Shown here: one piece after another, positions 15,152 to 60,990 of the stretch | How positions within the stretch are numbered: position 1 is the first letter of the stretch | Layout: the number at the start of each line of letters is the position of its first letter | From: an uncultured Blautia sp. | GTDB lineage: Bacteria; Bacillota; Clostridia; Lachnospirales; Lachnospiraceae | NCBI GenBank assembly: GCA_946622645.1 | Contig: CAMOQF010000002.1 | Location: forward strand, 190-64,189 | Length of the DNA stretch: 64,000 bases | Reading direction: 5' to 3' | Made by a program: the position numbers and the translations under genes | Notes under the pieces: generated by a model | What the model was told of the DNA's origin: nothing | The model's input: the letters and a program-made list of their open reading frames with translations, nothing else | Databases searched by the model: none

Positions 15152-15169
15152 TGCATGGAGGTGCATTTT

Positions 15170-17161
15170 TTGAGCAACGGCAATATAAATCACAGTAAAA
15201 ATACAGGAAAAACCCGGAATAAGCCGGTCAGAAACAATAAGAATAAAAACACATTTCTGAAAGGGTCTTCCCGAAAAACGGAAGCCGCAGATAAAAAGCC
15301 ATACAAAAAGCCGGAGTCACCGGCCAAAGCGCCGGTCAGAAAACCGGAGGCCAGAAAAACGGAGGTCAGAAAACCGGAGGTCAGAAAACCGGAGACCAGA
15401 AAACCGGAAGTCAGAAAACCGGAAGTCAGAAAACCGGAAGTCAGAAAACCGGCGCCCGCGACGTTTGTCAAAACCCCGGTGCGGTCCGCTTCCAAAAAGA
15501 GCAGAAAACAGGCTTCCCGCCTGAAGATCATCCCGCTTGGCGGTCTGGAACAGATCGGCATGAACATCACCGCCTTCGAGTACGAAGACAGCATCGTGGT
15601 CGTGGACTGCGGCCTGTCCTTCCCGGAGGACGACATGCTGGGCATCGACCTGGTGATCCCGGACGTGACCTACCTGAAAGAAAACATCCACAAAGTCAAG
15701 GGCTTTGTGATCACCCACGGACATGAGGACCACATCGGCGCGCTTCCCTATGTGCTGAAGGAAGTCAACGTCCCCATCTATTCCACCAAGCTGACCCTGG
15801 GCCTCATCACCAACAAGCTGCGTGAGCATAACATGGTCAAGACCACCAAAATGAAGGAGGTCCGCCATGGCCAGGTAATCAACCTGGGCGAGTTTGCCAT
15901 CGAATTCATCAAGACCAACCACAGTATCCAGGACGCTTCGGCCCTGGCCATCTATTCGCCGGTGGGCATCGTGGTCCACACGGGCGACTTTAAGGTGGAC
16001 TACACCCCGGTTTTCGGCGATGCCATCGATCTGCAGCGCCTTGCCGAGATCGGCAAAAAGGGCGTGCTTGCCCTGATGTGCGACAGCACCAACGCCGAAA
16101 GGCCCGGTTTTACCATGTCGGAACGGACCGTCGGCCATGTCTTTGACAATCTTTTCAACGAAAACCGGAATTCCCGGATCATCATCGCGACCTTCGCTTC
16201 CAACGTGGACCGTGTGCAGCAGATCATCAACACGGCTTACCGTTACGGGCGCAAGGTGGCGGTGGAAGGCCGCAGCATGGTCAACATCATCTCCGTCGCT
16301 TCGGAGCTCGGCTATCTGCGCGTGCCTGACCAGACGCTGATCGAGATCGACCAGGTCAAGAATTATCCCGACGACCAGGTGGTGCTGATCACCACCGGCA
16401 GCCAGGGCGAGTCCATGGCCGCGCTTTCACGCATGGCGGCCAGCATCCATAAAAAGATCACCATCAAGCCGAATGACACCATCATCTTCAGCTCCAACCC
16501 CATCCCCGGGAACGAAAAAGCCGTTTCCAAGGTGATCAACGAGCTGTCCATGAAGGGCGCCAAGGTCATCTTCCAGGATGCCCATGTATCGGGCCATGCC
16601 TGCCAGGAGGAGATCAAGCTCATCTATTCTCTGGTACGCCCCCGCTATGCGATTCCCGTGCACGGCGAGTACCGTCATCTGACAGCCCAGGCGCACATCG
16701 CGGAGGATCTTGGCTATGCAAAGGAGAACATCTTTATCCTTTCCTCCGGCAATATCCTGGAGCTGGATGAAAACGGCGCGGAGGTGACAGGCAGCGTGCA
16801 GACCGGAGCCATCTATGTGGACGGGCTGGGCGTCGGCGACGTGGGGAACGTGGTGCTGAGAGACCGGCAGAGACTGGCCGAAGACGGCATCATCATCGTG
16901 GTCATGACGCTGCAGCGCCACAGCAACGTTGTGATGTCCGGACCGGACATTGTCTCCCGCGGCTTTGTCTATGTTAAGGAATCAGAGGATCTGATGGAAC
17001 ATGCCCGTGAGGCGGTCCGGACAGCCCTGGATTCCTGCAGCGATAGAAACATCAATGACTGGAGCCGGATCAAGACGGAGGTGAAGGACGCTCTTTCCAG
17101 CTATGTCTGGAAGACGACCAAAAGAAGCCCCATGATCCTGCCCATCATCATGGAGGCCTGA
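15170..17161 (+). CDS. rnj: Ribonuclease J with a long basic N-terminal extension
   Basis: IIPLGGLEQIGMN, THGHEDHIG, HTGDFK, HVSGHA, PVHGE. Probable TTG start at 15170 after GGAGGTG; ATG 15155 is an alternative. Confidence 0.96.
   Translation: MSNGNINHSKNTGKTRNKPVRNNKNKNTFLKGSSRKTEAADKKPYKKPESPAKAPVRKPEARKTEVRKPEVRKPETRKPEVRKPEVRKPEVRKPAPATFVKTPVRSASKKSRKQASRLKIIPLGGLEQIGMNITAFEYEDSIVVVDCGLSFPEDDMLGIDLVIPDVTYLKENIHKVKGFVITHGHEDHIGALPYVLKEVNVPIYSTKLTLGLITNKLREHNMVKTTKMKEVRHGQVINLGEFAIEFIKTNHSIQDASALAIYSPVGIVVHTGDFKVDYTPVFGDAIDLQRLAEIGKKGVLALMCDSTNAERPGFTMSERTVGHVFDNLFNENRNSRIIIATFASNVDRVQQIINTAYRYGRKVAVEGRSMVNIISVASELGYLRVPDQTLIEIDQVKNYPDDQVVLITTGSQGESMAALSRMAASIHKKITIKPNDTIIFSSNPIPGNEKAVSKVINELSMKGAKVIFQDAHVSGHACQEEIKLIYSLVRPRYAIPVHGEYRHLTAQAHIAEDLGYAKENIFILSSGNILELDENGAEVTGSVQTGAIYVDGLGVGDVGNVVLRDRQRLAEDGIIIVVMTLQRHSNVVMSGPDIVSRGFVYVKESEDLMEHAREAVRTALDSCSDRNINDWSRIKTEVKDALSSYVWKTTKRSPMILPIIMEA
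15338..15457 (+). repeat. 15-bp tandem repeat (about 8 copies) encoding RKPEV-like pentapeptides
   Basis: Units AGAAAACCGGA(A/G)GTC and variants, read directly at 15338, 15353, 15368, 15383, 15398, 15413, 15428 and 15443. Confidence 0.95.
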
Positions 17162-18638: not shown

Positions 18639-19889
18639 ATGAAAAAACCGGAGCTTCTGGTGCCGGCGGGCAGTCTGGAGGTCCTGAAGATCGCCGTGCT
18701 CTACGGAGCGGACGCCGTCTATATCGGCGGGGACGCCTACGGCCTGCGGGCCAAGGCCCGCAACTTTTCTCCCGCCGAGATGAGAGAAGGGATCCGTTTC
18801 GCCCACGAGCATGGCGCAAAAGTCCATGTGACCGTCAACATCCTGGCCCACAACCGGGACCTGGAGGGAGTGGCGGCCTATCTGCAGGAGCTGAAAACGC
18901 TTGCTCCTGACGCGCTGATCATCGCGGATCCGGGCGTCTTTACGCTGGCAAGGCAGATCTGCCCGGAGATCGAGATCCATATCAGCACCCAGGCAAATAA
19001 TACCAATTATGAGACCTGCCTGTTCTGGCACAGCCTCGGAGCCAGAAGGATCGTGATGGCCCGGGAGCTTACGCTCTCCGAGATCCGGGAGATCCGTGAA
19101 AAAGTTCCGGATTCCCTGCAGATCGAAGCCTTTATCCACGGCGCCATGTGCATCTCTTATTCCGGCAGATGTCTTCTCAGCAATTATCTGGCCGGACGGG
19201 ACGCCAACCAGGGAGAATGCACCCACCCCTGCCGCTGGAAATATGCGGTGGTGGAGGAGACGCGCCCCGGTGAATACATGCCCGTGGAGGAGAACGAGCG
19301 CGGCACCTTTATCTTTAATTCCAAGGATCTCTGCATGGTCGACCACATGGAGGATATCCTTTCGGCCGGGATCGACAGCCTGAAGATCGAAGGCCGCATG
19401 AAGACGGCCCTCTACGTCGCGACCGTAGCGCGCACTTACCGCAAGGCGATCGACGAGGCGGCGCAGGATCCTTCGCTCTATCACGCGCACATGGACTGGT
19501 ATCTGGAACAGATCGCCTGCTGCACCAACCGGCAGTTTACCACCGGCTTCTTCTACGGAAAACCGGACCGGGAAAGCCAGATCTATGACAGCAGCACTTA
19601 TATCAAAGACTATGTATATCTGGGGTATGTGGAGGAGGTCCGTCCGGACGGGCTCGTCCGCATCACCCAGCGGAATAAATTCAGTACGGGAGAGACCATC
19701 GAGATCATGAAGCCGGACGGACGCAACGTTGCTGTCCGGGTGCGGTCGATCCATGATCCGGACGGCCGGGAGATGGAGAGCGCTCCCCACGCGCAGCAGA
19801 CCCTGTATGTGGATCTGGGAGCAGACGTCTGTATGTATGATATCCTCCGCCGGAATGACGGCGGCATGGAGGAAGGAAAACAAAGTTGA
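18639..19889 (+). CDS. U32 family protein (TrhP-like tRNA hydroxylation)
   Basis: KPELLVPAG, GADAVYIG, HGAMCISYSGRCLLS, CTHPCRW, LKIEGRMK. Confidence 0.9.
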   Translation: MKKPELLVPAGSLEVLKIAVLYGADAVYIGGDAYGLRAKARNFSPAEMREGIRFAHEHGAKVHVTVNILAHNRDLEGVAAYLQELKTLAPDALIIADPGVFTLARQICPEIEIHISTQANNTNYETCLFWHSLGARRIVMARELTLSEIREIREKVPDSLQIEAFIHGAMCISYSGRCLLSNYLAGRDANQGECTHPCRWKYAVVEETRPGEYMPVEENERGTFIFNSKDLCMVDHMEDILSAGIDSLKIEGRMKTALYVATVARTYRKAIDEAAQDPSLYHAHMDWYLEQIACCTNRQFTTGFFYGKPDRESQIYDSSTYIKDYVYLGYVEEVRPDGLVRITQRNKFSTGETIEIMKPDGRNVAVRVRSIHDPDGREMESAPHAQQTLYVDLGADVCMYDILRRNDGGMEEGKQS

Positions 19890-22800
19890 AAAGAACGATC
19901 GAAGAACTTTGCAGCGGAAAACATGAATATGACGTTCCTGCGCTGATGTTTTCACAGGAAAAGATCGAGGTGACGCTTCCTCCGGGACAGACGACCCAGC
20001 GGGAGCTCTACATCGGTACGGAATCGGACCACCGCATCAGAGGCTATGTGACTTCTTCGGACCGCCGCCTGGTGCCCGGGCTTGAAAGCTTTTCCGGGAC
20101 GACCATCCGCCTTCCCTTCGGGGTCGACGCGGTAGGCCTGCCGAACGGGGAGGTCCGGGAGGAGTGGCTCTGCTTTACCACCAATCTGGGCGAATACCGG
20201 ATCCCGGTCACCATCCGTACGGAAGCGGAGCAGATGAAGACCGCCGGAGGCGAGATCCGTTCTCTGGACGAGTTTGCCGCGCTGGCATCCCGGAATTTCC
20301 GTGAAGCCTACCGGATGTTTACGGAACCGTCGTTCTATGACCTGATCCATGCCCAGGATGAAAAGACCCGGTCCTTGTACGCCGGTCTTTCCGCCCAGCC
20401 CGTCACATACCAGAACCTGGAAGAGTTCCTGGTGGCCTCCGGCAGGAAGGACAAGGTGGAGGTCCAGCTGGGAGAATACCAGAAGGAGATCTTCGAGATC
20501 CAGGAATCCACCCGGGAAAGCCTTCAGATCACCCGGAGCGGCTGGGGGCATCTGCGGATCGACGCGGTGGTGCGCGGGAGCTTTATCGAGCTCGAAAAAC
20601 GCGTCATCACGGACGAGGATTTTATCGGAAGCACCTACAATCTTTCCTACGTGATCCGGAGAGACAGGCTGGGAGAGGGCAACCAGTTCGGCGAGATCCG
20701 CATCATCACGCCTTACCAGGAGCTGGTATGCCAAGTGACGGCTTCCGCCACCATCCGTTCCAACCTGATGCTCCGTATGGAGGAAAAAAAGAGACGGCTC
20801 AACCTGATGCAGGATTATCTGGACTATCGATGCCAGATGGTGGATACGGCCGCGTGGGCGGCCCAGTCCCATTATGAGCTGAACCGTCTGAAGGACGCCG
20901 GGTTTGATTATCCGGAGTATAAAATGTATGAGGTCTACGTGCTGTGGACCGAGGGAAAAAAGGCGGAGGCCTACGATATCCTGCGGGAATATCACAAGGA
21001 GCCCTTCATCAAGGACGACCCGGAGCTCGCAGGGCTCTATCTGTATCTGGCCTTCGAGGCAGGCATCTACAAAGACTCTGAATCGGTGCTCCGAAGGCTG
21101 ACAGGCCTCTATGTGCAGAATGAAAAGAGCTTTCTGCTGCAGGAGATCCTGCTGCACCTGGATCCGGAGCTGATCCGGGTCCCCTCCAAAGCGCTGTATC
21201 ACCTGGAGGAGATCTTTTCGAAGGGCTGCAAGAATCCTCTGATGTATCTGGAAGCATGGGTGCGGATCTGCATGGACGAGAGTCTTCTGCACAGGATCAC
21301 CCCCTTCTGGATCCAGGTGTTCCTGTTTGCCGGGCGGAGAGGGCTCCTGACGGAAGAGCTGACCATGCGCTTCACCTATCTGTCCGGGTATGAAAAAGAA
21401 TTTTCCGAGTGTCTGTACCGCGCCCTGGTCTACGGGTACGAGGCATATCCGTCGGACGAATCCCTGGAGGCCATCTGCCGCTATATCATGACCGGGAACC
21501 CCAGGAAGAAGGAGTATTTCCGCTGGTTCTCCCTCGCGGTGGAGCGGGACATCCGTCTGACAAGAGTGTTCGAGTATTATATGGAGACTGTGGACACTTC
21601 CTACCACAAAGAGCTGCCCAAGTCTCTTCTGATGTATTTCAACTACAACAACAGCAATCTGGGCGATACCAGAAAGGCATATATCTACGCGGATGTCATT
21701 GCGGGCAAGGATCAGGATCCCAAGACCTACAACAGCTACCGCCAGACCATCACGAGCTTTGCCGCCCAGAAGATCCGCGAGGGCAGGATCAGCGAGGACT
21801 ACGCCATTCTCTATCAGGAGTATCTGCGTAAACCGGAAAACCAGGAGGAGGCCCGTATCCTCTCCGGCATCCTGTTCGCGAACCGTCTGTACTGCGACAA
21901 CCCGCGCGTGCGGTGCGTGATCGTCCGTCACAGCCAGCTCACAAAGGAGGAACTGTATCCCTGCGTGCACGGCGTGGCATATCCGCGGATCTACACGGAG
22001 GACGCGGCTGTCCTGTTCCAGGACGACAAACAGCGCCGGTACAGCGCCACCGTGGATTACAATCTGAAAAAACTGATGGATGACCGCGATCTGGTCCCCG
22101 CGATCATCGAAAAAAGATACACCGAGCCGGGACTCCTTTTAAACTACTGCGAATTACACGAGATCACGTCGGAAAATCTGCCGGTCTTCCAGCAGGTGGT
22201 CCAGTCGGATTCCTTTTCCGAGGACTACCAGATGGAGACCCGCCGGAAGATCCTCCGCTGGTACCGTGAGAACATGAAAGGCGCCGAACTCGACATGCTG
22301 CTGAAGCGGCTGGATCACAGGGAATACGCCCTGGTGGACCGCAAAGCCCTTCTGGAGGTCCTGATCGACCGCGGCATGTTCCGCCAGGCTTATCAGATCG
22401 TGGAGGAGTTCGGCTCCGAGGACGTGAGTCCCTCCGATCTGCTGAAGCTGGTGAGCCGCATGATCATCCGCCTGGAGCTTAAGGAGGACGACGAGCTGAC
22501 GGCTCTTTCCTCCAGGATCTTCCGGGGCGGGCTGTACGACGAGATGATCCTCCGGTATCTCATGCTGTACCGGACGGGCCCCATCGATGAGCTCTTTGAG
22601 ATCCGCCGCTGCGCGGTGGGATTCGATCTGGACACCTATGCGTTCGACGAGAGGATCCTGGGTCTTCTGATGCTGACCACCGACTTCCGGAAGGAAGGCG
22701 AAAAGATCCTGGAAAGCTATGTGAGATCCTCCGGCCGCGAGCAGGTCATCAGCGCCTATCTGACCATGCTCTCTTACGGAGCATTTGTAAAAGACTACAG

Positions 22801-23416
22801 TGTCAGTCCCTTTGTGCGGGAATGCCTGATGACGGTGTATAAAAACGGCTGGGAAGTCGACCAGGTCTGCCATCTTGCCCTTTTCAAGGCCCTCTCCCGG
22901 GAAAAAGATCCGGACGGTCTGTACAAAGATCTCAAGGCGGATCTTCTGAAAGAGTGCATGGACCAGGGCATGCTTTTCGGCTTTTACAAAAAACTGCCGC
23001 AGGACCTTCTGAGCCCCTGGCAGCTGGATGACAAGACCTTTGTGGAATGCCATGCGTCGCCGGGAGCCGTCGTGACTTTGTTTTATCAGCTGGATTCCGG
23101 CATCGGAGAGCCGGACGGCTTTGCTTCGCTGCCGATGACCCAGGTCTATGAAGGGATCTTTGTACGGACCTTCACCCTGTTTTACGGCGAGACGCTGCGT
23201 TATTATTTCGTGACAGAGGAAAAAGGAAAAACGCGGAAGACGCCGGAGCGTGTCCTGACCATGAACCGTGTGGAAGGCAATCCTTCCTCCCGGTATCAGC
23301 TCATCAACCGCATGCTGTCGTCCCGCAAGCTCGGCAAGAAGGACGAGACCCAGAGAGGCCTTAAGGATTACCTCCGTCAGGAGCAGTATGTAAACGAAAT
23401 GTTCGACCTGAAATGA
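19886..23416 (+). CDS. Large hypothetical protein (DUF5717-like), 1176 aa
   Basis: Long ORF with host-like codon usage; TTG start overlaps the U32 stop, after GGAGG. Beta-rich termini and helical middle. Family name is recalled from Lachnospiraceae annotations, not searched. Confidence 0.75.
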   Translation: MKRTIEELCSGKHEYDVPALMFSQEKIEVTLPPGQTTQRELYIGTESDHRIRGYVTSSDRRLVPGLESFSGTTIRLPFGVDAVGLPNGEVREEWLCFTTNLGEYRIPVTIRTEAEQMKTAGGEIRSLDEFAALASRNFREAYRMFTEPSFYDLIHAQDEKTRSLYAGLSAQPVTYQNLEEFLVASGRKDKVEVQLGEYQKEIFEIQESTRESLQITRSGWGHLRIDAVVRGSFIELEKRVITDEDFIGSTYNLSYVIRRDRLGEGNQFGEIRIITPYQELVCQVTASATIRSNLMLRMEEKKRRLNLMQDYLDYRCQMVDTAAWAAQSHYELNRLKDAGFDYPEYKMYEVYVLWTEGKKAEAYDILREYHKEPFIKDDPELAGLYLYLAFEAGIYKDSESVLRRLTGLYVQNEKSFLLQEILLHLDPELIRVPSKALYHLEEIFSKGCKNPLMYLEAWVRICMDESLLHRITPFWIQVFLFAGRRGLLTEELTMRFTYLSGYEKEFSECLYRALVYGYEAYPSDESLEAICRYIMTGNPRKKEYFRWFSLAVERDIRLTRVFEYYMETVDTSYHKELPKSLLMYFNYNNSNLGDTRKAYIYADVIAGKDQDPKTYNSYRQTITSFAAQKIREGRISEDYAILYQEYLRKPENQEEARILSGILFANRLYCDNPRVRCVIVRHSQLTKEELYPCVHGVAYPRIYTEDAAVLFQDDKQRRYSATVDYNLKKLMDDRDLVPAIIEKRYTEPGLLLNYCELHEITSENLPVFQQVVQSDSFSEDYQMETRRKILRWYRENMKGAELDMLLKRLDHREYALVDRKALLEVLIDRGMFRQAYQIVEEFGSEDVSPSDLLKLVSRMIIRLELKEDDELTALSSRIFRGGLYDEMILRYLMLYRTGPIDELFEIRRCAVGFDLDTYAFDERILGLLMLTTDFRKEGEKILESYVRSSGREQVISAYLTMLSYGAFVKDYSVSPFVRECLMTVYKNGWEVDQVCHLALFKALSREKDPDGLYKDLKADLLKECMDQGMLFGFYKKLPQDLLSPWQLDDKTFVECHASPGAVVTLFYQLDSGIGEPDGFASLPMTQVYEGIFVRTFTLFYGETLRYYFVTEEKGKTRKTPERVLTMNRVEGNPSSRYQLINRMLSSRKLGKKDETQRGLKDYLRQEQYVNEMFDLK

Positions 23417-23432
23417 CCGAAAGGAACCAACG

Positions 23433-24695
23433 ATGAATGAGATCAGGGATCTGATCCTCGGGATCGATTTTGGAAAAGAAAAGACACAGCTCTGCTACTA
23501 TGACCGGAGAGCAGGCGAACCCAGATCTCTCTCCATGAAAGTGGGCGCCAACGTGTACGAAGCTCCCACCAGGCTCTGCTATCTGAGCGACCAGGAGGAT
23601 TATACCGTCGGGCTGGAGGCAGACTATTTTGCCCGCGAGAGAAACGGGGAACTGATAGAAGGCCTCTACGATCTGAGCGGCACCGAGGACACCGTCCAGA
23701 TCGGGGGGAAGACCGTGACGCCGGTCGATCTTCTGACCCATTTTCTGAAGGGAATGCTGCGCTATGTGGGCGTGGTGGACGTGATCCGCAACACGAAGTG
23801 TCTTTGCATCACCTCCCCCGTGCTGACGGAGATCCGTGTGAAAAACCTGAAGGAAGCCTGCAGAAATGCAGGACTGTCCGATGAGCAGTTCATGCTCCTG
23901 GACCATGGAGAAAGCTTTTACTACTATGTGATGACCCAGAAAAAAGAGGTCGTGAGCCGGAGCGTCGCCTGGTATCTGTTTGACCAGGACCACGTCACCT
24001 TCCGGAAGATGACGCTCAACACGGCGAAAAAGCCTTTCCTGGTCCGGCTGGAGGATCCTGTCGAGACGGATCTTCCTCGTTCCGCCAAAGAGAGAGACTC
24101 GGCCTTCTGCGAGTTTATCCAGAAGACGATCGGGACGGAGCTTTTCTCCAGCGTACAGATCAGCGGGGAAGGATTCGGGACCGAATGGGCCCTGCAGTCC
24201 GTCAAGATCCTCTGCTTCCAGAAGCGGAAGGTCTATTACGGCAACAATCTTCACGCCGGCGGGGCATGCGCCTGCGCCAAGGAGAAAACGGAGGACAGGA
24301 GCCTGCGTTCCTACCGCTTTTTGAGCGAGTCCCTCGTGAAGAACGATGTGGGCATGGATATGCTGGTGATGGGCTCCCGGGCTTTTGTGCCGCTGATCAC
24401 CAACGGCGGAAACTGGTACGAGACCCACAGTCACTGCGAGCTGATCCTGGACGGAATGGAAGATCTGGTGTTTGTGGTCAGCTCCATGGGCGATACCGAA
24501 AAGAAACGCGTCGTCATGCGGCTGCCCGGTCTTCCCAAAAGACCGCGGAAGACCACCAGGCTTTCGCTGGACCTGTCCTACGTGTCTCCTGAAAAATGCG
24601 AGATCACCGTGAAGGATCTGGGCTTCGGCGAAATGTTCCCCAAAAGCGGGAAAGTCTGGAAAGAGACCGTTACCTGGGAGGAGGGCAGTCTATGA
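23433..24695 (+). CDS. Divergent Hsp70/DnaK-fold protein (DUF5716-like)
   Basis: ILGIDFG, CITSP, KEACRNAGL and RLPGLP...TVKDLGFG align in order with motifs of the DnaK in this window. Confidence 0.7.
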   Translation: MNEIRDLILGIDFGKEKTQLCYYDRRAGEPRSLSMKVGANVYEAPTRLCYLSDQEDYTVGLEADYFARERNGELIEGLYDLSGTEDTVQIGGKTVTPVDLLTHFLKGMLRYVGVVDVIRNTKCLCITSPVLTEIRVKNLKEACRNAGLSDEQFMLLDHGESFYYYVMTQKKEVVSRSVAWYLFDQDHVTFRKMTLNTAKKPFLVRLEDPVETDLPRSAKERDSAFCEFIQKTIGTELFSSVQISGEGFGTEWALQSVKILCFQKRKVYYGNNLHAGGACACAKEKTEDRSLRSYRFLSESLVKNDVGMDMLVMGSRAFVPLITNGGNWYETHSHCELILDGMEDLVFVVSSMGDTEKKRVVMRLPGLPKRPRKTTRLSLDLSYVSPEKCEITVKDLGFGEMFPKSGKVWKETVTWEEGSL

Positions 24696-32890: not shown

Positions 32891-32901
32891 TCTCCGCCGG
32901 A

Positions 32902-32995
32902 TCACGAAGGATCACGAAAGATCGCGAAGACTCACGAAGTTTCACGAATTTCCAGGATCACTCACGATTTTTCCACGAAGATTCACGAGAAAAAA
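32902..32995 (+). repeat. 10-bp-phased array of TCACGAA-like motifs upstream of the sigma factor gene
   Basis: TCACGAA at 32902, 32912, 32932, 32942; TCGCGAA 32922; TCACGAT 32962; CCACGAA 32973; TCACGAG 32983. Confidence 0.9.
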
Positions 32996-33017: not shown

Positions 33018-33046
33018 CATACAAAATAAAACGTCTCCTGTATAAT
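33018..33046 (+). promoter_or_regulatory. Putative sigma-A promoter with perfect -10 and weak -35
   Basis: TATAAT at 33041-33046; the hexamer 17 bp upstream is CATACA (poor -35). Confidence 0.5.
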
Positions 33047-33148: not shown

Positions 33149-33751
33149 ATGAGAACAGATCGTCTGCCGGAGCCGCTCTCCAGGCAGCAGGAAGAGGGAC
33201 TGCTGTTCCTGATGCGGAAGAAGGGGAGTCGGGCAGCCCGGGAAAAACTGATCATCCATAATCTTCGCCTGGTCTATGCCATAGCCTGGGAATACGCCGG
33301 GATCCTTGAACTGGAAGACCTGGTTTCCTGCGGCGTCATCGGCCTGATCAAAGCGGTGGATGCGTACGATGGTTCCCGGAAGGCAGGGCTCGGAAGCTTT
33401 GCCGCGCGCTGCATCCGGAACGAGATCATCTCGGAGCTTCGCAGGATGAAAAGAAACGAGAGAGAAACGCTGGAGGCGATCACGCCGGAGCAGGAGATGA
33501 CGCTCTGGTCTCTGCACAGACATGAGCTGGATCCCCAGAGCATGATCGAAAGATCCGAAGAAAGAGAGGCGCTGTACAAAGCGCTGAAACATCTGGGGAG
33601 AGAGGACCGGCAGCTGCTGAAAAAGCGTTATCTTTCCGCTCAGAAGTGTTCTCAGCAGAAACTGGCGGAACAGACCGGACTTCATCAGTCCAGCATCGCC
33701 CGTCGGGAGATGCGTATTCTCGAAACGCTTCGCAGGCAGCTGCCTTCCTGA
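33149..33751 (+). CDS. Orphan sigma-E/sigma-K-like RNA polymerase sigma factor without pro-sequence
   Basis: LPEPLS, HNLRLVYAIA, EDLVSCGVIGLIKAVD, FAARCIRNEI, SQQKLAEQTGLHQSSIARRE match the sporulation sigE pattern; ATG 33149 follows GGAGG/AGGAG. Confidence 0.85.
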   Translation: MRTDRLPEPLSRQQEEGLLFLMRKKGSRAAREKLIIHNLRLVYAIAWEYAGILELEDLVSCGVIGLIKAVDAYDGSRKAGLGSFAARCIRNEIISELRRMKRNERETLEAITPEQEMTLWSLHRHELDPQSMIERSEEREALYKALKHLGREDRQLLKKRYLSAQKCSQQKLAEQTGLHQSSIARREMRILETLRRQLPS

Positions 33752-38939: not shown

Positions 38940-40880
38940 ATGAGATCCAGAAAGCGGCGTCTGTCTGCTGTGACCGGCCTTCTGCTGGCAGCTGTTGTCA
39001 GTCTGTCCGGGCCGCTGCAGATCACAGCCGCAGAAACAAACGCGCAGAGCATCGATCTGGAAGAATTCTGGAAGGAGCGCACGGAAGGACAGGAGGGAGA
39101 GAACACTCCGACGCCTGCCCCGCAGACTCCGGACGACAAACAGACAACGCCGGCGCCGCAGACCCCGGATGACACGCAGCCGACGCCGGCGCCGCAGACT
39201 CCGGACGATCCGCAGCCGACGCCGATCCCCGGCGATACCGGCACCGACGATCATGTGATCTCGACGGAACCGCAGGTCACGTACGATGATCTGGAGCGGA
39301 TGAACAACGGCCAGGAGATCGTTCTGTTTTCGGATGAAGGCTATCTGATTTTTCTGTTTGGAAAATACTATGACAAGCAGGTCCATGACCAGGAAGAAGC
39401 GATCGCCTCCCTCCAATGCATGGCCGGTCTGCTCGGACTGTCCAAGGGTTCGGAGTTTTACAGTGTCTTCGGCATGCAGGATCCGCTGGGCTACACCTAT
39501 TATATCTACCAGCAGCGGTACGGGGACATCACTCTCCAGAACGCCGTCCTCAAGGTGATCGTAGACCCGGAAGGCTACCCCTGCGGCCTGGTCTCTTCTT
39601 TCACGCCGAATATCGGCATCGCGCCGGATGATGAACCGCTGGTCACGGCAGATGAAGCGCTGGAGATCGTAAAGAAGCGCTACCAGGGCACGGCCATCAC
39701 CTTTTATCCGGAAGCCACCCGCCAGACATCGGTGACTTTCCACAATGTTGCCTATCATGCCTGGGCGGTTTTCAGCAGCCATCCCGCCGAGACAAGGCCG
39801 ACAGAAGGTCCTGCATATCTGGAACATCTGGTTTCATATGACGGATTGTATCTCTACAGCATGGCCGTCCGGTCTCCGGAGGAGATGGTCCTGGGAGACA
39901 ATATCCCCGGAGAGCTTGCCGCGGCCTGGTTCGACGGAAAAGAAGCCGGCACCTACACGGGGGAAGTCACTCTCTGCGACGGGACCAAAGAAACCATCAC
40001 AGTTCCGGTTGTCTGGGATCCGGAACAGAATACCTACATCCTGGCGGATCCCGAAAGAAAGATCCTGGTGGCTGATCACAAGACCTTCCGGGACAGGCTG
40101 GAGCTGAAAACCATCACCTCTCCCGACAACACCGGCTGGCCGGAGCATTACCTGAAAACCTACAACACGTACATCAAAGTCTATGACTTTTTCGACAGTC
40201 ACAACTTCCATTCCGTGGATGGCTTTGGAGTCCCCATCCTGATCCTGTATGATTTTGTGGATGACATGGATCTTCCGTACGACAACGCCTGCTATCTGGG
40301 CAGAGCGGACGGGTGGGCCTGCTTTGGAGCAAGCGCCATCAACGATTATGGTGAAGCGCTCGATGTCATCGGCCACGAGTTCACACACGGCATTACGGAA
40401 TGGGCTATGGGAGGCCAGCTCTACGAAAATGAATCAGGCGCTCTGAACGAGGCTCTGAGCGATATCCTGGGAAATCTCTGCGAGATGATCTCGGGCGAGA
40501 CCGACGATACGGAATGGCTGATCGGAGAGAAGAGCGGCAGAAAATTACGGAGCATGAGCTTTCCGTGGAAGTATAAAAATCCCGGCATGATCGGCGATGA
40601 GTTTTATATCCCGGTCCAGGAGAGACCTTCCTACTATGATGACTACGGCGGGGTGCACACCAACAGTTCCCTGGTCAATCTGATCGCCTGGAACCTGTGT
40701 GCCCGCGGCATGTCGCTGGAGGATGCCTTTACGCTCTGGGTGGAAACGATCCACCTGTTAAGCCCGACCTCCGGTTTCCGTGAGGTCCACGCCGCTCTGG
40801 CAGCCGCCTCCGAGATCCTGGGACTGGACATCACGGTGGAGGGACAGATCCACATGATCTGCCAGCAGATGGGTTTCTGA
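38940..40880 (+). CDS. Secreted M4 (thermolysin-like) zinc metallopeptidase
   Basis: Signal peptide; DVIGHEFTHG (HExxH), ESGALNEALSD, GGVHTNS; FTP/PepSY-like pro-region. Confidence 0.9.
   Translation: MRSRKRRLSAVTGLLLAAVVSLSGPLQITAAETNAQSIDLEEFWKERTEGQEGENTPTPAPQTPDDKQTTPAPQTPDDTQPTPAPQTPDDPQPTPIPGDTGTDDHVISTEPQVTYDDLERMNNGQEIVLFSDEGYLIFLFGKYYDKQVHDQEEAIASLQCMAGLLGLSKGSEFYSVFGMQDPLGYTYYIYQQRYGDITLQNAVLKVIVDPEGYPCGLVSSFTPNIGIAPDDEPLVTADEALEIVKKRYQGTAITFYPEATRQTSVTFHNVAYHAWAVFSSHPAETRPTEGPAYLEHLVSYDGLYLYSMAVRSPEEMVLGDNIPGELAAAWFDGKEAGTYTGEVTLCDGTKETITVPVVWDPEQNTYILADPERKILVADHKTFRDRLELKTITSPDNTGWPEHYLKTYNTYIKVYDFFDSHNFHSVDGFGVPILILYDFVDDMDLPYDNACYLGRADGWACFGASAINDYGEALDVIGHEFTHGITEWAMGGQLYENESGALNEALSDILGNLCEMISGETDDTEWLIGEKSGRKLRSMSFPWKYKNPGMIGDEFYIPVQERPSYYDDYGGVHTNSSLVNLIAWNLCARGMSLEDAFTLWVETIHLLSPTSGFREVHAALAAASEILGLDITVEGQIHMICQQMGF
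39108..39224 (+). repeat. 36-bp tandem repeat (about 3.3 copies) encoding PTPAPQTPDDxQ
   Basis: Units start at 39108, 39144, 39180 and (partial) 39216. Confidence 0.9.
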
Positions 40881-60101: not shown

Positions 60102-60185
60102 AGCGGCTTTCCGGACTGTCACGAATCCCTTGTACTGCGCGCATTTCGTAAGAAAACACACCGGTGGATTTCACGAAAATTCACG

Positions 60186-60218
60186 AGAAAAAAAGAGGCT
60201 TCCGGGCCTCTTTTTTCT
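60186..60218. terminator. Bidirectional rho-independent terminator after recN
   Basis: AGAAAAAAAGAGGC-TTCCGG-GCCTCTTTTTTCT. Confidence 0.75.
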
Positions 60219-60351
60219 TGCATTCTGTCATGAACGGTGCTAACAATGGATGCAGGGAGCGGCTTCTTTGGAAGGGAAAGACGCACGCTTCTTACGAGGC
60301 CTCGTATCGACAAAATCAACTGGTTCACGTATGACAGGAGGGGAGTTTCAT

Positions 60352-60990
60352 ATGAATAAGATCAATGTCGCTGTCGTCTCCGGACGGGAGCTGAAACCTG
60401 ATGACCTGCTGCTCCGGATGATCCGGGAGGACGGCTCGCTCTACTATGTGGGCACCGTTTCCAATGAGGATGAAGTGAAAAACCTGATGGAGCTCGATCC
60501 GCCCGACATGCTTCTGTTTTCTTCCATCGTACCGAAACTCTGGCGGCGCGACGGACGGCTGTTTTCCAGCGCGCAGAATCTGACCGGGACCCGCTACAGC
60601 ATCCCGGGGAGCGCGCTTCCGCTCCGCGAAGAAAACCTGGAGCTGATCGTCAGCAACATCCTGCACGAGCTGGGGGTGCCCACCCACATCAGCGGTTTCG
60701 GTTTTATCCGCGACGCCGTGATCCTGGCCGTCTATGACCAGGGGCAGCTGGGAAAGATCACGAAGGTCATGTATCCCACCATCGCAAAGAAGAACATGAC
60801 GACGCCCAGCAAGGTGGAACGGGCCATCCGCCATGCCATCGATCTGGCGTGGGAGAGAGGGAGCCTCAAGTATATCGACGAACTCTTCGGAAGCGATCTG
60901 CGGGACAAACGCATCAAACCTACCAATTCGGAATTCATCGCTTTGATCGCGGATAAGATCCGGATGGACTGGAAAAACAGGAAATATTAA
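60352..60990 (+). CDS. spo0A: Spo0A homolog with intact DNA-binding domain and degenerate, truncated receiver
   Basis: C-terminal LHELGVPTHISG, ITKVMYPTIAK, TTPSKVERAIRHAI and KPTNSEFIALIADK are Spo0A_C signatures; located at the canonical position after recN; 212 aa. Confidence 0.9.
   Translation: MNKINVAVVSGRELKPDDLLLRMIREDGSLYYVGTVSNEDEVKNLMELDPPDMLLFSSIVPKLWRRDGRLFSSAQNLTGTRYSIPGSALPLREENLELIVSNILHELGVPTHISGFGFIRDAVILAVYDQGQLGKITKVMYPTIAKKNMTTPSKVERAIRHAIDLAWERGSLKYIDELFGSDLRDKRIKPTNSEFIALIADKIRMDWKNRKY

Follow-up and report, generated by a model that had tools for sequence, protein, structure and literature searches.

A Spo0A ortholog with a conserved half-receiver in a ruminant-gut Lachnospiraceae lineage, a candidate phosphorylation-independent regulator

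Spo0A is the textbook output of the phosphorelay, and gut surveys use it as a standard marker to tell which Firmicutes form spores. In a 64,000-nucleotide stretch of contig CAMOQF010000002.1 from an uncultured Blautia sp. (assembly GCA_946622645.1; hereafter the window), we identified at 60352..60990 a truncated ortholog of spo0A, termed spo0A'. Its 212-amino-acid (aa) product keeps Spo0A's DNA-binding domain together with the first half of the receiver domain, and the gene is an ortholog of spo0A inherited by vertical descent in a Lachnospiraceae lineage of the ruminant gut that is losing sporulation genes. We favour the reading, with a probability of roughly 0.6, that this product is a natural phosphorylation-independent Spo0A which would regulate itself and a small residual circuit. 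All window features described below lie on the + strand.

Architecture, conservation and position of spo0A'

The gene consists of 212 codons and a stop, and its assignment is based on the open reading frame (ORF), a ribosome-binding site (AGGAGG/GGGGAG, 6-10 nt 5' of the ATG), a Spo0A_C match and orthologs of the same length. A longer ORF using an in-frame start at 60250 was not supported: the upstream gaps among relatives are not multiples of three, and the N-terminus of canonical Spo0A aligns to the 60352 start. A Pfam scan of the 212-aa protein matched residues 100-203 to PF08769 (Spo0A_C) over the full model length (E 1.8e-36) and gave no Response_reg (PF00072) match. The NCBIfam Spo0A equivalog TIGR02875 scored 160.4 bits against a cutoff of 200, with the alignment confined to model positions 143-260, and the nearest solved structures were the Spo0A C-domains 1FC3/1LQ1 (E ~1e-37).

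The protein was compared with a canonical reference hidden Markov model (HMM) built from 62 Lachnospiraceae Spo0A proteins, and a MAFFT alignment served as a second method. Residues 1-63 of the protein were matched by model positions 1-62 with 25.7 bits, and residues 89-212 by positions 144-267; this left model positions 63-143 unmatched and residues 64-88 without any counterpart, a net loss of ~56 residues. Both methods placed S10-G11 at the canonical acidic pair (D10, D11) and S57 of 'LFSSIVPK' at the phospho-acceptor Asp56 of 'VLDIIMPK', and the receiver segment with the conserved Thr and Lys (T84, K108) is absent. The break falls after I-x-P-K-L (residues 59-63) and leaves the C-domain intact, as in a sad67-like architecture. 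These results agree with a first-pass annotation of the same DNA, which had reported SG in place of the DD pair, Ser at the phospho-acceptor position, deletion of the second receiver half with its Thr and Lys, and a well-kept DNA-binding domain. Its further claim that the protein cannot accept His-Asp phosphorelay input is supported at the sequence level, with D10, D11 and D56 substituted and the T84/K108 region deleted. The term 'pseudo-receiver' that it used had to be dropped: the usual sense is a full fold without the Asp, whereas here a stump of strands 1-3 is joined to a new, conserved linker.

Three segments make up the protein. The half-receiver stump (residues 1-62; 60352..60537) comprises strand1-helix1-strand2-helix2-strand3 and was delimited by HMM and MAFFT alignment, AlphaFold2, a weak Foldseek match and the ratio of non-synonymous to synonymous substitution rates (dN/dS). 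The linker LWRRDGRLFSSAQNLTGTRYSIPGSALPLR (residues 63-92; 60538..60627) is specific to and conserved in the clade of 212-aa proteins described below, where ~20 of its positions are invariant; ~25 of its residues have no relation to canonical Spo0A, and it takes the place of helices 3 to 5 and of some of the hinge. The C-terminal DNA-binding/transcription-activation domain (residues 93-212; 60628..60987) was assigned from PF08769, 1FC3/1LQ1 and Foldseek.

AlphaFold2 was run twice, once with a 74-sequence alignment and once with 7 family members only. The stump was modelled with its five elements over residues 4-56, at a predicted local distance difference test (pLDDT) score of ~76-81 when the 74 sequences were used and a lower one when only the family members were, and the C-domain was modelled confidently; residues 59-91 had pLDDT <50 in both runs and gave no usable fold. 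Foldseek placed the C-domain on 1FC3/1LQ1 with a template-modelling (TM) score of 0.91-0.96 and a root-mean-square deviation of 1.3-2.0 Å, and it matched the N-terminal 56-61 residues weakly to the first halves of receiver domains (E 0.4-1.3). Strands 1-3 and helices 1-2 could be aligned or modelled, which falls short of the complete five-strand (beta-alpha)5 CheY-like fold. A three-strand half-domain of this kind would plausibly expose a hydrophobic face, and we speculate that it could self-associate or pack against a partner.

A search of 5.8 billion proteins returned four other clusters of exactly 212 aa with PF08769 alone (P0001-P0004), at 99% (P0001) and 67-69% (P0002-P0004) identity to the window protein, for which an exact look-up found no identical protein on record. 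All four lack DD, having SG or SE instead, and their Asp56 position reads S, R, H or R. Selection was estimated by the Nei-Gojobori method on the five genes of this 212-aa clade. The window gene and P0001 were separated by 35 synonymous and 4 non-synonymous differences (dN/dS 0.03). Between P0003 and P0004, dN/dS was 0.14 in the receiver stump, 0.07 in the linker and 0.12 in the DNA-binding domain, and the values spanned 0.03-0.2 in all three segments (stump: 0.04-0.17). More distant pairs had saturated synonymous sites (dS >1), with pN/pS of 0.24-0.40 in every segment. Stump and linker are constrained as much as the DNA-binding domain.

The spo0A' sequence was found in sheep, goat and bovine gut metagenomes. 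Bovine-gut metatranscriptome contigs covered 60276-60535, 60477-60785, 60653-60879 and 60683-60870, and the contig at 60477-60785 crossed the deletion junction without gaps; as such libraries can contain DNA, this coverage is supportive rather than conclusive. A scan of a genome collection matched only the metagenome-assembled genome (MAG) carrying P0003 and three canonical relatives, the window species lying outside the representatives. ATG is the start codon of the window gene alone; the other four 212-aa orthologs begin with TTG or GTG (L011 661, L005 921, L001 10001, L010 367), a possible sign of inefficient translation.

The first-pass annotation had named two ways in which its reading could fail, and neither was borne out. 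An intact receiver concealed by a frameshift was rejected: the 639 bp and their short flanks are too small for the ~165-bp missing segment, the relatives have the same length, and the RNA contig runs across the junction. An assembly artefact was also rejected, with at least five independently assembled, diverged genes sharing the 639-bp length. Neutral evolution as a pseudogene is not compatible with dN/dS of 0.03-0.2.

The window and the P0002 and P0003 loci have in common the order prfC-asp23-nusB-xseA-xseB-ispA-dxs-rrmJ-nadK-argR-recN-[gene]-glgA-recA-recX-rny. Two rumen MAGs with full-length Spo0A read recN-spoIVB-(FHA protein)-spo0A-glgA, and Blautia obeum reads recN-spoIVB-spo0A-glgA-recA-recX-rny-spoIIM-xerD. 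The spo0A' gene stands directly 3' of recN and before glgA as in canonical Lachnospiraceae, a position that supports orthology, with spoIVB missing from the full signature. Both spoIVB and spoIIM are absent from the collinear region of the truncated-gene lineage (loci L001, L005): over a ~20-kb syntenic block the two sporulation genes are gone and every housekeeping gene is kept. The spoIIM gene of B. obeum lies between rny and xerD (L016 15990-16583), and L001 15571-15930 and L005 6512-6830 lack it. Among ~30 large window ORFs scanned, none was sporulation-specific, with a divergent sigma factor gene (see below) as partial exception. A phage gene or paralog was rejected in view of the conserved synteny among housekeeping genes, the lack of phage genes nearby and the presence of the receiver remnant.

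An exhaustive HMM search with a stump-plus-linker profile against 1.84 billion cluster representatives yielded two further proteins of similar architecture, P0124 and P0125; a word-index search with the N-terminal profile had returned two fragments only. The P0124 cluster has 12 members, among them a 213-aa form (P0277), and the P0277 branch retains DD and Asp56. P0125 has 301 aa, with DN and Ser at the pocket and a ~90-residue low-complexity insert. The loci of P0124/P0277 and P0125 read recN-[gene]-glgA and have no spoIVB, and in all three branches the break from the canonical sequence comes directly after I-x-P-K-L. Because P0277 shares this break yet keeps DD and Asp56, the deletion probably preceded the pocket decay; in the simplest history there was a single deletion in the ancestor, after which the acidic pocket decayed in two of the three branches.

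Two side observations concern this wider family. In the P0277 lineage (L137 11879-17997), a BrnT/BrnA toxin-antitoxin pair comes after recA, together with a phosphorelay-type cluster of hybrid histidine kinases, a REC-GGDEF-EAL protein and an Hpt protein, located 4-9 kb from the half-receiver spo0A that still carries Asp56. Four metagenome singletons (P0046, P0073, P0074 and P0113) are Blautia-type Spo0A proteins of 219-254 aa, canonical in other respects, with differing in-frame receiver deletions and Asp56 mostly kept; they may be either assembly artefacts or recurrent natural deletions.

Box arrays at spo0A' and at a sigma factor gene, and other window features

The recN-spo0A' intergenic region contains two head-to-tail 0A-like boxes, TCACGAA-aaa-TCACGAG, 10 bp apart (60171..60187), which we propose from their sequence and conservation as an autoregulatory operator. 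At 60119..60125, 52 bp or ~five turns of the helix upstream of this pair, there is a putative single TCACGAA box. The recN terminator hairpin, GAGGCU-UCCG-GGCCUC with a U run (60195..60216), separates the boxes from the promoter; a terminator scan missed it and RNA folding confirmed it (-22.9 kcal/mol, z = -2.5). The putative promoter, TTGCAT, 17 nt, TG-n-TAACAAT (60218..60247), has the columns TTGC..TG.TAA..A kept in five lineages, and downstream of it, at 60276, is the start of an RNA contig. When the intergenic regions of the five 212-aa lineages were aligned, the 10-bp-spaced CG(AA) cores, the recN hairpin and the promoter-like element were kept amid diverged DNA. A consensus promoter scan found no standard sigma-70 promoter at spo0A' or at the sigma-gene locus, and an Rfam search of the recN-spo0A' intergenic region gave nothing meaningful.

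Every branch has 3-4 head-to-tail boxes with a 10-bp period 5' of the truncated spo0A. These boxes read (T/G)CTCGAA, three or four times, in P0003/P0004; GTCGAA / CTCGGA / GTCGTA in P0002; TTGCGAA-taa-TAACGAA-ttt-TATCGAA, followed by a terminator, in P0125; and TGTCGAC-aaa-TGACAAA-taa-TGTCGAA-ttt-TCTCGAA, which contains a perfect canonical 0A box, in P0124/P0277. The last array resembles the B. subtilis abrB promoter, with its 7-bp boxes and 3-bp spacers. In canonical relatives the boxes are single or dispersed. Spo0A binds 5' of its own gene in C. difficile, and the 0A box TGTCGAA is contacted at bases G2, C4 and G5, with a G2A change costing ~10-fold affinity (PMC3485338). Since C. difficile Spo0A binds its own upstream region and the box is TGTCGAA, we read the upstream arrays as putative autoregulatory 0A-type operators. 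The candidate boxes keep C4, G5 and the following A bases, and position 2 is G, C, T or A depending on the lineage.

The first-pass annotation had also found the recognition helix unusual and suggested an altered operator preference. The string that it quoted, TTPSKVERAIRHAIDLAW, is present, but its Pro appeared odd only against the Bacillus reference used for comparison: Spo0A proteins of Lachnospiraceae, with TTPSRVERAIRHAIEVAW here, normally have the Pro seen in TTPSKVERAIRH. The true peculiarities of the helix are R->K, confined to the window lineage, and EV->D[L/T/I], found in the whole 212-aa clade. Because V155, E156, R157, I159, R160 and H161 are invariant across 74 aligned Spo0A proteins, the helix argues that 0A-box recognition is retained; operator preference may nevertheless be altered or relaxed, since the candidate boxes depart from TGTCGAA at position 2. 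In the P0001 lineage (L011 487-510), both boxes read TTACGA(A/G) instead of TCACGA(A/G), and A158S, one of three amino-acid differences, falls within the recognition helix; this could be co-variation, a single case that we treat as a lead only.

A second array (32899..32995), recognised from sequence, is made up of nine positions in phase; ~eight of these hold a recognisable TCACGAA-type box, and five boxes keep an exact 10-bp period. Both this array and the spo0A' operator end in the 15-mer ATTCACGAGAAAAAA, which is found nowhere else in the window, with 0 expected. Triple CGA arrays with 10-bp spacing were sought in 218 kb of related DNA and found only 5' of truncated spo0A genes and of the sigma gene. 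A metagenome-wide scan for three TCNCGAA boxes gave no window-homologous locus among the matches listed (at least 120 loci). An independent metagenome contig covers the array with one mismatch; one sample spans it, and other short-read contigs break inside.

A perfect TATAAT (33041-33046) lies 52 bp past the last box of this array, compared to a corresponding distance of 54 bp at spo0A', and the promoter scan detected no recognisable -35 here. The gene downstream (33149..33751), the proposed target of the array, encodes a divergent SigE/SigK-like sigma factor of 200 aa without a pro-sequence, as indicated by NCBIfam and homolog comparison. Its best NCBIfam matches were SigK/SigE (114 bits vs cutoffs of 252-339); the alignment starts at SigK/SigE model position ~26-34, and we therefore concluded that the pro-sequence is lacking. 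One close homolog was found (85% identity), with the next at ~39%. Against the 85% homolog the sigma gene had a dN/dS of 0.14, and the in-frame upstream extension is stop-interrupted in that homolog. The shared box array is the sole basis on which we propose a link between the truncated Spo0A and the sigma gene.

Elsewhere in the window, a 15-bp tandem repeat, GGTCAGAAAACCGGA (15334-15452; 91% matches over 7.9 copies), is located close to the 5' end of an RNase J ORF (15155-17161) and, if translated, would give a 5-residue peptide repeat. A 36-bp tandem repeat (39108-39224; 3.2 copies) encodes a Pro/Thr/Asp-rich TPAPQTPDD repeat in a thermolysin-family (M4) peptidase, within its N-terminal region. 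Adjoining DUF5717 (1176 aa) and DUF5716 (420 aa) genes occupy 19886-24695, 3' of a U32 peptidase gene.

Proposed mechanism and alternative explanations

In Spo0A the unphosphorylated receiver inhibits the effector domain, and phosphorylation lifts this inhibition and drives dimerisation. The isolated Spo0A DNA-binding domain binds legitimate targets unphosphorylated (PMC3485338, citing the primary work), and Sad67 is active without the phosphorelay (PMC4495169, PMC4689505). In the mechanism that we propose, an ancestral in-frame deletion right after I-x-P-K-L, past strand 3, would have removed receiver helix 3 through helix 5; the Thr/Lys switch residues and the dimerisation face of helix4-strand5-helix5 would have gone with them. 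The acidic pocket (DD, Asp56), by then useless, would have decayed in two of the three descendant branches. With the part of the receiver that restrains the DNA-binding domain gone, the protein would bind DNA and regulate without the phosphorelay, like sad67 or the isolated C-domain, and how active it is would depend mainly on how much of it is present; an output that follows its own expression level fits an autoregulatory operator. As targets we propose degenerate 0A boxes (NNNCGAA) arrayed head to tail with a 10-bp period, one array lying 5' of the gene's own promoter for autoregulation and the other 5' of the SigE/SigK-like sigma gene without pro-sequence. These tandem arrays may supply in cis, via cooperative side-by-side binding, what receiver-mediated dimerisation once gave, and the stump and linker, being under selection, might serve oligomerisation or partner binding. 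The scenario in full, with Spo0A turned in two steps into a one-component, concentration-driven factor of a non-sporulating rumen lineage, box multiplication with a relaxed 5' half-site, autoregulation and a sigma circuit, is one that we put forward tentatively.

Several observations weigh against a constitutive, self-regulating Spo0A. The constraint on stump and linker, equal to that on the DNA-binding domain, is unexplained by a purely constitutive model and suggests regulation or an interaction. The P0277 branch, with DD and Asp56 in place, leaves open a residual use of the pocket. The C-domains of canonical Lachnospiraceae are 91-97% identical mutually, compared to 57-64% between the 212-aa clade and canonical proteins. 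A total of 22 canonical-invariant C-domain positions are changed in all members of the clade, including K114, Y116F, Y118F, E164D, S168E and the loop 186-188, and several fall within the stretch equivalent to the B. subtilis sigma-A-activating region, which we take to be window residues 170-183; given this change, the activation properties may differ from the canonical ones. The window boxes have C for G at the canonical contact position 2 and may be weak sites or sites of another protein, and single 0A boxes (TGTCGAA, TCNCGAA) were not enriched in the window, where only the arrays stand out. The sigma-gene array was compared within one species only, and four metatranscriptomes contained no sigma-gene transcripts, though contig data cannot prove absence. 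The view of the lineage as non-sporulating is drawn from two or three local gene losses.

The strong stump and linker constraint is why we keep open a partner-regulated alternative, in which the protein is not constitutive and still receives signals through an inhibitor, an anti-activator, a kinase-like protein or a small ligand docked on the stump and linker. We consider this unlikely. Purifying selection on the stump (0.04-0.17) and the linker (0.07) is as strong as on the DNA-binding domain, the ~20 invariant linker positions of the 212-aa clade and the DD and Asp56 retained in the P0277 branch would suit docking, and a linker with pLDDT <50 is what would be expected of a segment that folds on binding. 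In none of the branches, however, is the locus linked to a candidate gene for such a partner, and the linker is very different among the three branches, with the ~90-residue low-complexity insert in P0125, which speaks against a single conserved docking motif.

The changes at canonical-invariant positions in residues 170-183 could also point to a dominant-negative or silencing factor that, without an activation-competent dimer, occupies 0A boxes and represses, for example, residual sporulation-type promoters. Against this, in the work of Grimsley (1994) and Ireton (1993), the isolated C-domain and Sad67 reportedly both activate and repress in B. subtilis. The silencing model would fit the location of the boxes 50-150 bp upstream of the -10 elements, not a typical activator position, and the lack of sigma-gene transcripts among the contigs of the four metatranscriptomes. 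Nevertheless, boxes so far upstream are poorly placed for steric repression, the poor -35 at both promoters is typical of activator-dependent promoters, and Sad67 activates as well as represses in B. subtilis (PMC4689505). We regard silencing as quite improbable.

A slowly decaying, functionless sporulation relic, with arrays that belong to another regulator or are fortuitous repeats, would account for the loss of the neighbouring sporulation genes, for a C-domain that evolves much faster than in canonical relatives and for the TTG or GTG starts in four of five orthologs, and degraded spo0A genes are known in non-spore-formers (bioRxiv 10.1101/2022.02.25.481979). Such a relic would not be expected to keep its frame and exact length over lineages with saturated synonymous sites (dS >1), to show dN/dS of 0.03-0.2 in every segment, to remain intact in all three deep branches, to be transcribed, or to have box cores conserved amid diverged non-coding DNA, and we hold this explanation very improbable. 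Phage-borne receiver-less Spo0A homologs exist (PMC10294663), but a phage origin or an assembly or frameshift artefact has a negligible probability, given at least five independent assemblies with the 639-bp ORF, the RNA contig across the junction, too little DNA for a hidden receiver, the ancestral recN-spo0A-glgA position and a stump homologous to the Spo0A receiver.

Significance and comparison with known systems

For annotation, a conserved Spo0A predicted to be non-phosphorylatable, in a lineage shedding sporulation genes, means that a 'spo0A present' call can mislead. For mechanism, spo0A' would be a natural counterpart of the sad67 and DNA-binding-domain-only constructs behind thirty years' argument that the receiver inhibits the effector domain. 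For evolution, the three branches suggest an order toward signal independence, with the deletion first and acidic-pocket decay second. If the arrays are operators, the replacement of protein dimerisation by cis-element multiplication becomes testable, as does the idea that bacteria abundant in the ruminant gut reuse remnants of the sporulation cascade (Spo0A to a SigE/K-like sigma) for another purpose.

Compared to canonical Spo0A (TIGR02875; B. subtilis, C. difficile, Blautia obeum), spo0A' is alike in its recN/glgA position, C-domain, recognition-helix residues and upstream 0A-type boxes, and differs in the lack of a functional receiver, a score below the TIGR02875 cutoff, the absence of spoIVB and a C-domain only 57-64% identical. 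Although the receiver residues and score of its product fall outside the Spo0A equivalog definition, the product clearly descends from Spo0A.

The sad67 allele is reportedly an in-frame deletion of codons 63-81 (Ireton and colleagues, 1993), which would start almost at the point where the natural one begins. Its likeness to spo0A' would lie in an in-frame receiver deletion just past the strand3-helix3 loop; by these coordinates, the natural deletion is ~three times larger, running through helix 5 into the hinge, and the acidic pocket has also been lost. Sad67 is a laboratory B. subtilis allele, whereas spo0A' is an evolved, fixed state under selection whose activity we infer from sequence. With the isolated Spo0A DNA-binding domain it has in common the absence of inhibitory receiver contacts, and it differs in keeping a conserved 62-residue stump and 30-residue linker under purifying selection. 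Atypical phosphorylation-independent response regulators such as HP1043 and ChxR keep a complete receiver fold and are usually constitutive dimers. The spo0A' product has half of that fold deleted, and it resembles them in its response-regulator descent and in the predicted lack of Asp phosphorylation.

Schwartz et al. (2023) described gut-phage Spo0A homologs that consist of the effector domain only and were proposed to be independent of host signals (PMC10294663). Unlike these, spo0A' is chromosomal, syntenic and vertically inherited, carries a receiver remnant and occurs in a lineage without some sporulation genes. Galperin et al. (2022) reported 40 non-spore-formers with full-length spo0A and, for Macrococcus, a single gene that is 'highly degraded' (bioRxiv 10.1101/2022.02.25.481979); there, and probably here, spo0A outlasts sporulation, but no conserved half-receiver architecture was described. 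In the searchable literature we found neither an account of a Spo0A ortholog that is chromosomal and syntenic and has a conserved half-receiver nor one of tandem 0A-box arrays accompanying it. The evolutionary series and the sigma-linked arrays raise the weight of the finding, and the sad67, DNA-binding-domain-only and phage precedents lower it, so that we judge it moderate. The spo0A' product probably works like the constitutive laboratory derivatives of Spo0A.

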